Source: Octopus vulgaris (lineage: Eukaryota). From it: DNA of 64,000 bases. Each line of letters starts with the position of its first letter. Position 1 is the first letter of the stretch. The DNA lies in assembly GCA_951406725.2 (NCBI GenBank), contig OX597838.1:10788001-10852000 (forward strand), given 5' to 3'. The notes under the pieces were generated by a model that ran no database searches, was not told where the DNA came from, and saw nothing but the letters and a program-made list of their open reading frames with translations. Shown one piece after another: positions 15,918 through 18,506 of the stretch. The position numbers were made by a program, and so were the translations under genes.

Positions 15918-15925
<8 letters not shown>

Positions 15926-16721
15926 AAAAAAGGTTTGAAAATGCAATTTAAACGATGTTTATTTACTTAACCGGTTTCACTCTTTGGTAAAAGATTGTCA
16001 AAAGTTACATTTAAGGAAACATTGAATAATATGGGTTCAAAAAAAGTTTTTTACATAATTGTCACATTGAATATTATGCATTCAAAAAAGTTTTTTACAT
16101 AATTGTCACATTGGATATTATGGGTTCAAAAAAAGTTTTTTACATAATTGTCACATTGAATATTATGCATTCAAAAAAGTTTTTTACATAATTGTCACAT
16201 TGGATATTATGAATTCAAAAATGTTTTTTTATACATAATTGTCACATTATTTGGGAAAATTTGGCAGAAAAGGATAAAACAAATATATTATTGGGAATTG
16301 GTTGCGTTAATTATTGGTTGTCGCAAATTGTCACATTACATGTATATATATACAATCTTTGGTATATATATACAGCGTTTTGACAGCAAAAATTAAAATG
16401 GATTTTTTGTCCATCTCAGAATATTTTAAGTATGTTTTTACTGACCTGTCAGTATTAGCAGAAAGGCTGAACTGAGAGAACAGAAGTAGCCAATGTGGTG
16501 TATACTTCCCCTTTATGCATGAATGATTTTGGGGTTATCAGGAGGTTAGTATGCGGGTGTGAATAGATGTGTCCGTGCCTGCTGGTCAGACAGCGTCTGT
16601 TTGTCACACACATATATATACACACAAACACACACACACACAACAACACACACACACACACACATAGTATACAAACACATTGTGAGCATTGTATACGTGT
16701 GTATGTATTTACATATGTATC

Positions 16722-16780
<59 letters not shown>

Positions 16781-18506
16781 TGTGTGTGTATATGCATGGT
16801 ATGTGTGTATATGTTAGTACTTTGTTTGTGTGTATGTGCGGCATGTAGAGATATATTTGAGTGTGTACGCTATAGGTTTGTAATTTGTGTGTGTGGGGGG
16901 TGGTGAATTTTTTATATATATATGTGTGTGTGTATGTGTGTGAAAAAATATATGTATGTGCATGTATGTATGTATGTATGTGTGTATATATATATATATA
17001 TATGTGTATATATATGTGTGTGTGTGTATGTGTGTGTGTGTATATTTATTTGCATGTTTATGTGTGTATAAACATGTACATTATTTGCATGCGCATTGTA
17101 TATATGTATATTGTATGTATGTGTATTGTATATGTACGTGTACAATTAAGTGTATATATTTGTGTGTATGTGTGCACTGTATATATGTATATTGTAGGTG
17201 TGCTATATGTGCATGAATACATGTATATGCATTGCGTGTATATATATGTATGCATTGTGTGTGTATGTATGTTATGTGTGTGTGTGTGTGTATATATATA
17301 TTATATGTATGCGTACGTGTATGTGTATGCATTGTATGTATGTGTGTTGTGTGTATATGTGGTACATCTATGTATGTGTATGTAAACACTATTTATATGT
17401 ATATGTGTATATATGTATATGCATTGTCTATATATATATATATATTATATGTATGTATTGCGTATGTATATTGCATGCATATATCGTGTATGTATATTAC
17501 TTACATGCTGTATGTGTGTATTGTATGTGTGTATATATATATGCTAGGTGTATTTGTGTGATATTTATATTATGTATGTATGTGTGCGTGTGTTGTGTGT
17601 GTGTGTGTGTATGTGTGTTATATATCTGTGTATGTTATATATAGATACATGTTATATTTGTGTGCTGTGTGTATATGTGATATATGTGGGTGCGTTGTGT
17701 GTGGGTGTGTGTGTTCTGTGTGTGTGTGTGTTGTTTGTATGTGGTTTGTGTTTGTATACTATGTGTGTGTGTGTGTGTGTTGTTGTGTGTGTGTGTGTTT
17801 GTGTGTATATATATGTGTGTGACAAACAGACGCTGTCTGACCAGCAGGCACGGACACATCTATTCACACCCGCATACTAACCTCCTGATAACCCCAAAAT
17901 CATTCATGCATAAAGGGGAAGTATACACCACATTGGCTACTTCTGTTCTCTCAGTTCAGCCTTTCTGCTAATACTGACAGGTCAGTAAAAACATACTTAA
18001 AATATTCTGAGATGGACAAAAAATCCATTTTAATTTTTGCTGTCAAAACGCTGTATATATATACCAAAGATTGTATATATATACATGTAATGTGACAATT
18101 TGCGACAACCAATAATTAACGCAACCAATTCCCAATAATATATTTGTTTTATCCTTTTCTGCCAAATTTTCCCAAATAATGTGACAATTATGTATAAAAA
18201 AACATTTTTGAATTCATAATATCCAATGTGACAATTATGTAAAAAACTTTTTTGAATGCATAATATTCAATGTGACAATTATGTAAAAAACTTTTTTGAA
18301 CCCATAATATCCAATGTGACAATTATGTAAAAAACTTTTTTGAATGCATAATATTCAATGTGACAATTATGTAAAAAACTTTTTTGAACCCATATTATTC
18401 AATGTTTCCTTAAATGTAACTTTTGACAATCTTTTACCAAAGAGTGAAACCGGTTAAGTAAATAAACATCGTTTAAATTGCATTTTCAAACCTTTTTTCT
18501 TATATA
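15918..18506. repeat. Long inverted repeat/foldback: arms 15918-16679 and 17747-18506, ~1.07-kb degenerate TG/TA spacer
   Basis: By eye the arms are reverse complements apart from two 1-nt homopolymer differences; (TA)n-rich tracts lie on both sides. Confidence 0.97.
16026..16250 (+). repeat. 44-45-bp minisatellite x5 inside the left arm (mirrored at ~18175-18400)
   Basis: ttcaaaaaagttttttacataattgtcacattg(a/g)atattatg(ca/gg) units starting at ~16036, 16081, 16125, 16170, 16214, with alternating variants. Confidence 0.95.

Follow-up and report, generated by a model that had tools for sequence, protein, structure and literature searches.

The origin of the inverted ends and the one-sided tail of Penelope-like elements (PLEs) is named as an open question in the available text of PMC8557442 and is left unresolved in that of PMC11167929. 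The one-ended tail itself has already been described qualitatively (PMC3846280, PMC8557442). In an anole PLE studied in vitro, both target strands are cut and extended, and reverse transcription uses two start sites, which bound the tail (PMC11167929). The architecture described below is already known, and the measured coupling of tail and no-tail ends is a modest addition to it. A literature search over the text available turned up neither a tally of tail coupling nor a twin-priming model for such elements; both may be present in Arkhipova 2006, in Evgen'ev and Arkhipova 2005, or in figures or supplements.

The locus compared here lies in a window of 64 kb (the whole stretch of Octopus vulgaris DNA that was analysed) and, judged against long copies of the same family, is an insertion of a young PLE of about 5.8 kb that targets (TA)n tracts; the insertion is 5′-truncated and its 5′ part is inverted. 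The coordinates of its features are given in Table 1. Between the inverted arms (15918-16679 and 17747-18506), the alignment has 762 columns and 99.74% identity, with 0 substitutions and two 1-nt gaps, both in A-runs, in agreement with the initial annotation, which had described the arms as reverse complements with two 1-nt homopolymer differences. A 551-nt portion at 100% is the longest ungapped inverted stretch within the window. The internal 44-45-bp minisatellite (about 5.1 copies) and the (TA)n tracts on both sides (15886-15923 and 18543-18900), also noticed initially, are recovered by TRF. The span first given for the element, 15918..18506, holds for the inverted repeat. Its right end does not, as the element extends to 18543 via a 37-nt tail that had been missed.

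The spacer of about 1.07 kb had been taken for a captured microsatellite. It is in fact the element's own 3′UTR, because 16681-18543 runs as a single unbroken sense fragment against the natural copy L011, from about 330 nt past the RT-EN stop. The last 756 nt of this fragment recur in inverted orientation at 15924-16679. Matches and mismatches of the spacer to long copies number 1048 and 2 for L011, 1039 and 3 for L012, 1050 and 6 for L092, and 921 and 71 for L016. Instead of two pLTR-like units around a microsatellite, the locus contains a 1.85-kb sense 3′ fragment of an autonomous family, joined to 756 nt of the same 3′ end in inverted orientation. The window copy has no coding sequence, consistent with the earlier remark that no RT or transposase ORF is present here. 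The exact insertion ends cannot be placed, since element and target are both TA and the outer TATATA of each arm is ambiguous. Elsewhere in the window, 884-1734 and 3325-4235, both on the minus strand, hold what we take to be LINE-like RT and helicase-like fragments, and 20934-21543 and 26747-27222 hold a 229-bp tandem repeat and an old self-inverted repeat with 68% identity.

Table 1. Features of the fold-back locus and of the adjoining RIM-BP exons (positions in the window)
Feature	Position	Strand	Basis and remarks
RIM-BP exon, alternatively included	15567-15728	-	tblastn, O. bimaculoides isoform X2, 96%; acceptor AG 15729-15730
Left (TA)n target tract	15886-15923		TRF; last 6 nt equally assignable to the element's first TA run
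Inverted tail-less copy of element 3′ end, 756 nt	15924-16679	-	Arm alignment, comparison with L011
Hammerhead motif (candidate), left arm	15965-16005	-	Mirror of 18419-18459; sole copy in sense on the RIM-BP pre-mRNA
Minisatellite 44-45 bp, left arm	16019-16248	-	TRF
Inversion junction, one base	16680		Matches neither arm's continuation in L011; likely untemplated
Element's own TG/TA-rich 3′UTR ("spacer")	16681-17746	+	Starts about 330 nt past the RT-EN stop codon of long copies
Sense 3′ end (pLTR region), including minisatellite 18178-18405	17747-18500	+	TRF, arm alignment, long copies
Hammerhead motif (candidate), right arm	18419-18459	+	Pattern match and stem comparison; predicted cut after 18455
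First internal TA run, stop point of tail-less ends	18501-18506	+	Comparison of ends across copies
37-nt PLE tail, right arm only	18507-18543	+	In long copies flanked by TA runs (first and second), just upstream of ORF1
Right TA-rich target tract	18544-18900		TRF
Upstream RIM-BP exon	22413-22526	-	tblastn, O. bimaculoides isoform X2, 97%

Searching the 2.8-Gb genome with 356 nt of the arm yielded 897 first-look candidates; the 40 that were scored were all about 100% identical, and many of them stood in facing pairs. This search and the 50 two-ended inverted pairs found on contigs C1-C5 show that the arm recurs genome-wide as inverted pairs, a point that the initial annotation had put forward for checking. 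The PLE origin proposed for the arms is upheld by long copies, which encode an RT together with a GIY-YIG-type endonuclease. The unit measures about 5.8 kb, and 33 ORF1 starts were found genome-wide by exact match. Long copies contain an ORF1 of 447 aa and an RT-EN ORF of 758-759 aa, both of which are open in four of the eight long copies examined. The motifs DKG, GTAMG, YLDD and a two-cysteine VIR-YIG were read directly from the RT-EN ORF, and a CX4CX2C linker separates RT from EN in the five of these eight copies that have an open RT-EN ORF. Pfam detects RVT_1 in the long-copy ORF (E 6e-8) and returned no GIY-YIG hit at E<=0.05 in the long copies, where the C-terminal GIY-YIG with CCHH was assigned from motifs read directly; a PDB search found no relative. 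pLTRs from partial tandems and inverted 5′-truncated copies are seen in the family (L091, L092, L093, L016, L070), and 118 of 135 outer ends in the fetched loci adjoin at least 10 nt of perfect TA. By its RT motifs, C-terminal endonuclease motifs, pLTRs and one-ended 37-nt tail, the family is an EN+ PLE. It probably belongs to the Neptune clade, a placement drawn from motifs plus the (TA)n bias and not from a tree; the linker is common to Nematis. Naiad/Chlamys membership was ruled out: the EN is C-terminal, the RT motif is DKG and not DKA, and a hammerhead motif is present.

ORF1 and ORF2 overlap in L016, L022, L091, L092 and L093, the RT-EN ORF being in the -1 frame of ORF1 and its AUG lying 4 nt before the ORF1 stop. 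About 35 nt before that stop, in the ORF1 frame, the overlap contains U UUU UUA, which we take to be a slippery heptamer; the fold downstream of it is weak (-6.4 kcal/mol), and other copies differ by 1 nt in homopolymers. The RT-EN ORF may be translated by frameshift or by reinitiation. Several further observations concern the copies themselves. L011 and L012 (G000:C16:11404400-11417100) are near-full-length and stand head to head in a palindrome of about 12.7 kb with a tail at one end only, and a similar spacing occurs at G000:C26:33644687-33646272. At L095 and L096 (G000:C3:155245800-155260000), several inverted pairs are adjacent or nested, which suggests repeated insertion into earlier TA flanks. 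Another PLE-like family is represented by an ORF at L027:5414-6847, in which the linker and the GIY-YIG-type motifs recur. The arm is also found at high depth in run X14, which has a second organism label, with many contigs at least 99% alike, pointing to the family or close kin being common to a relative.

Exact matching to element ends gave 293 ends with the tail genome-wide, some of them lying within tandems, and 242 without it; the controls gave 0. The tally of pairs covers contigs C1-C5 and was made from the matches listed, i.e., 99 of the 293 tail ends and 93 of the 242 tail-less ends. These ends form 130 clusters: 75 singles, 5 tandem or complex arrangements, and 50 two-ended inverted pairs. 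Among these pairs, again from the matches listed, 49 of 50 combine a tail end with a tail-less end, one is without a tail at either end, and none has two tails, against an expectation of about half mixed pairs under independent end choice. When 14 apparent singles were fetched, five proved to have an inexact inverted partner (all five pairs mixed). The other nine were solitary, four with a tail and five without, so either end type can arise alone. Among four sister-family pairs (L071, L085, L087, L088), the same tail asymmetry is clear in L085 and L088. It should be noted that L104 and L106 on C1, both solitary, agree in their 5′ breakpoint and in the flank upstream of it, and only one of them has the tail; they are possibly daughters of one truncated source.

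Arm haplotypes were compared in 28 pairs spanning the same 442 nt, 18 of which were not selected for identity. In these 18 pairs, arms within an insertion are separated by 0.72 substitutions per 442 nt, those of different insertions by 6.99; arms are identical in 9 of the 18, versus 5% between loci, and differ by 1-2 substitutions in the other 9. Thus, the two arms of a pair carry common lineage SNPs. Junctions were examined at 73 loci, of which 54 were scored and 49 resolved, one pair without a tail and four with gaps over 40 nt being dropped; the junction and haplotype sets overlap with the C1-C5 pair tally and are not independent of it. The tail arm is the longer in 34 of the 49 resolved junctions, within 30 nt of its partner in 8, and shorter in 7. 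Near-equal arms (within 30 nt) are more frequent than the shuffled mean of 0.86, none of 20,000 shuffles having reached the observed 8. Microhomology of at least 2 nt is present at 19 of 27 insert-free junctions, versus about 18% in the null. Inserted bases occur at 22 of the 49, some of them copy variation against the single reference L011, and junction calls inside the minisatellite or microsatellites are unreliable. Across the family, arms range from about 30 nt to over 4 kb, and the junction differs in every copy. In L017, the inversion junction is interrupted by 500 nt of RT coding sequence (3428-3926), which suggests an extra template jump.

The initial annotation had called the element young, in line with arms that have no substitution and with other arm cores, which differ from the window copy by a median of 0.57% (63 other hits). 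With 0 substitutions in about 760 nt, the divergence of the window arms is at most about 0.4% (95%). If synonymous sites change at 0.0036 per Myr, as quoted in PMC13282606, this would place the insertion under roughly 0.5-1 Myr of age, an estimate that polishing or conversion would bias young.

The hammerhead-like motif reported near each outer end stands as to its minimal layout and its two positions; the stem II register then proposed does not, another register fitting sister families better. In the window, the motif comprises a U3-A8 core, a 4-bp stem I, a U-U mismatch followed by a 5-bp stem II, and a palindromic stem III. The core pattern has 10,143 matches genome-wide versus 320 for the reversed control, with U3 cores in about 84 of 100 among the matches listed (counted by eye). 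Stems were compared in 24 distinct motifs from the window and from 20 loci hand-picked among the matches listed. Stem I pairs 1-4 are kept in 23, 22, 19 and 15 of the 24, respectively. Within the U/C...U-end class, stem II pair 2 (C-G past the U-U mismatch) is kept in 14 of 18, versus 4 of 18 in the earlier register, and the G10.1-C11.1 closing pair is unpaired in all 18. When forced, the monomer fold was computed to be unfavourable (+6.7 kcal/mol), and Rfam placed no hammerhead among 59 matches. According to PMC4209133, as far as its available text goes, U3-A8 is a described PLE variant (Schistosoma Cercyon), and motifs without the closing G-C pair cleave poorly even as dimers. By its core nucleotides (U3-A8, GAAA, UH) and its stem pairing, the window motif is a candidate minimal PLE hammerhead. 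The RIM-BP pre-mRNA contains a single sense hammerhead, the complement of which is transcribed first, so cleavage of the pre-mRNA would be unlikely. Genome-wide, minimal hammerhead cores that have this palindromic stem III number about 10,000; they come from several families, and most are of U3 type. A compensatory change from A-U to G-C is found at the first stem II pair in one family (L087 vs L088). Seven C3-G8 cores at G000:C1:20002278-20004542, with 353-359-bp spacing and an orientation switch, resemble a retrozyme-like tandem array.

Exons in the window match RIMS-binding protein 2 (RIM-BP) of O. vulgaris and O. bimaculoides at 91-100%, and tblastn confirms the earlier identification of 15567-15728 as a RIM-BP exon about 190 nt from the element. 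The host intron runs from about 22412 to 15729 (6.7 kb), with the element about 190 nt upstream of this exon. The exon is present in O. bimaculoides isoform X2; O. bimaculoides X6 and O. vulgaris X3 gave no tblastn match to it. Since the exon is alternative in O. bimaculoides, its skipping would not need the insertion, provided that O. bimaculoides is without the young copy. A contig in run X10 (probably RNA) matches the exon at 15565-15730, its ends being unaligned. Six A>G changes at 16039-16045 appear in this one of the four runs, five of them on one contig at a depth of 2.7, and are absent from the other three; this contig could derive from any family copy. The run types are guesses, no RNA run being on record among those listed, and the runs say nothing on expression. 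In all four DNA or unlabelled runs used as a control, no change is listed at 16039-16045; this control is weak, as at summed depths of 1e4-1e5 a variant confined to one copy would not reach the 1% threshold. The duplex of the two arms is predicted at -1290 kcal/mol. Because intronic repeats are edited in squid (PMC9068888), editing as a by-product is likely; we consider it quite likely that the RIM-BP pre-mRNA would fold into this duplex of about 760 bp and be edited by ADAR in that way. The chance that the element has a regulatory role in RIM-BP is, in our opinion, small, and for the host gene it is likely a passenger.

Read from the end products alone, the tail/no-tail pairing and the shared haplotypes would rather probably result from priming by a (TA)n tract at both of two UA-runs, 37-43 nt from each other on one RNA, followed by template-switch joining. 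The element's endonuclease would nick both strands of the tract, and each TA 3′ end would pair with one of the two UA-runs. One RNA would serve both strands per insertion and yield two cDNAs, one of which would fold or jump onto the other. The lineage SNPs common to the arms favour such priming, in which a single RNA offers the two UA-runs to both target strands. Shared SNPs could also stem from gene conversion, from assembly polishing or from a source locus that supplied two RNAs, although 9 of the 18 pairs differ by 1-2 substitutions. Pairing with UA-runs would not be general among PLEs, because anole PLE reverse transcription starts at a site lacking homology to the target (PMC11167929). 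Alternatively, a single cDNA primed at the tail end may have snapped back, the second strand having ended, or been cut by the endonuclease, at the first TA run. We regard this as possible but unlikely. It accounts for the tail/no-tail pairing, the shared SNPs and the hairpin-like junctions, it fits the 34 junctions with a longer tail arm equally well, and it has precedent in PMC8557442, where endonuclease resolution is suggested as the source of the tail, and in PMC3846280, where such palindromes are read as self-priming. The tail-less arm, however, is longer by more than 30 nt in 7 of the 49 junctions and by 4-27 nt in five of the eight near-symmetric ones (L047, L051, L056, L059, L068), and it holds sequence absent from the tail arm in 12 of 49. 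Moreover, tail-less solitary copies exist, yet pairs without a tail amount to only 1 in 50.

Separate RNAs on the two sides of the break, free to choose their start sites independently, are improbable: the 49 mixed pairs of 50 and the shared lineage SNPs demand extra asymmetry and a single active source per event. In favour of this reading, either end type is found alone, and the anole protein, for which a dimer is predicted, showed no strand difference in start site in bulk (PMC11167929). Marginally less probable is the reading given in the initial annotation, i.e., a non-autonomous palindrome of two pLTR-like units around a captured microsatellite that regulates editing or splicing of RIM-BP. 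The predicted duplex close to the acceptor of an alternative exon, the contig with A>G changes and the editing of intronic repeats in squid (PMC9068888) all speak for it. Nevertheless, the spacer is element 3′UTR, five of the six A>G sites come from one shallow contig in one run and possibly from any copy, and the adjoining exon is already alternative in another species' annotation; the palindrome does not transpose as a unit, because the junctions differ in every copy and the spacer is 3′UTR. A foldback Mutator-type DNA transposon with long TIRs, or an assembly artefact, has a negligible probability. Long inverted arms with an internal minisatellite, differing only in homopolymer length, would suit both, but the internal ORFs encode RT and a GIY-YIG-type domain, no transposase is seen in the long copies, and arm lengths are not fixed. 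An artefact at this locus is very unlikely on family-wide evidence, given that the asymmetric tail recurs genome-wide and that arm sequence is abundant in all four DNA or unlabelled runs. A long-TIR DNA transposon had been the first reading after the arm search and was dropped once RT-endonuclease ORFs were seen in long copies.

Double priming on one RNA may be extended into a broader proposal, to which we would give slightly less than even chances. Each insertion would use both UA-runs exactly once, a dimeric RT-endonuclease priming both strands at a (TA)n break from one RNA through base pairing with these two target-mimicking sites, and the tail would be the footprint of coupled twin priming. 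The family would then supply octopus pre-mRNAs with perfect long duplexes by the hundred, and these would form a series of new, dated ADAR substrates. The locus itself is ordinary within the family, being one of hundreds of similar young truncated copies, and is structurally not special, because hundreds of such fold-backs exist; it would be relevant to the host only if carriers show editing or altered inclusion of the RIM-BP exon. A young family with open reading frames and hundreds of insertions provides countable constraints on PLE integration, namely the mixed ends, the shared haplotypes and the junction geometry.

In LINE-1 twin priming, the second target strand primes on the same RNA, which gives a 5′ inversion, and L1 inversions do not duplicate the 3′ end; in the octopus PLE, by contrast, the arms overlap. 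Within PLEs, the octopus motif shares with the minimal hammerheads of metazoan PLEs the Type I layout, short stem I and palindromic stem III, and differs from them in the G10.1-C11.1 pair, which is highly conserved according to PMC4209133 and replaced by U-U in the octopus family and its close sister families. The Adineta vaga Penelope (PMC3846280) has an inverted pLTR, a tail on one inverted pLTR, palindromic junctions and microhomology at the 5′ joint, as does the octopus family. Unlike the latter, it has measurable target-site duplications and few copies, and self-priming on an antisense template is proposed for it. Anolis carolinensis Poseidon (PMC11167929) is similar in its two start sites bounding the tail, in the cutting and extension of both strands, in its AT-rich target and in a hammerhead near the ORF start. 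Its two sites are situated within the ORF, at an AC-rich stem-loop without target homology, whereas in the octopus family both ends are at TA runs upstream of ORF1 that match the target. Neptune PLEs, as described in the available text of PMC8557442, share with the octopus family an RT with DKG, a C-terminal GIY-YIG with CCHH, a CX2-5CxxC linker, the (TA)n bias, partial tandems, an inverted 5′-truncated copy and a tail of 30-40 bp that is often one-ended. The octopus family differs in its separate 447-aa ORF1 overlapping the RT ORF (the Fig. 1 legend of PMC8557442 allows a frameshifted ORF1), in a microsatellite-rich 3′UTR of about 2.1 kb that includes the minisatellite, and in a coupling of tail and no-tail ends measured at 49/50.
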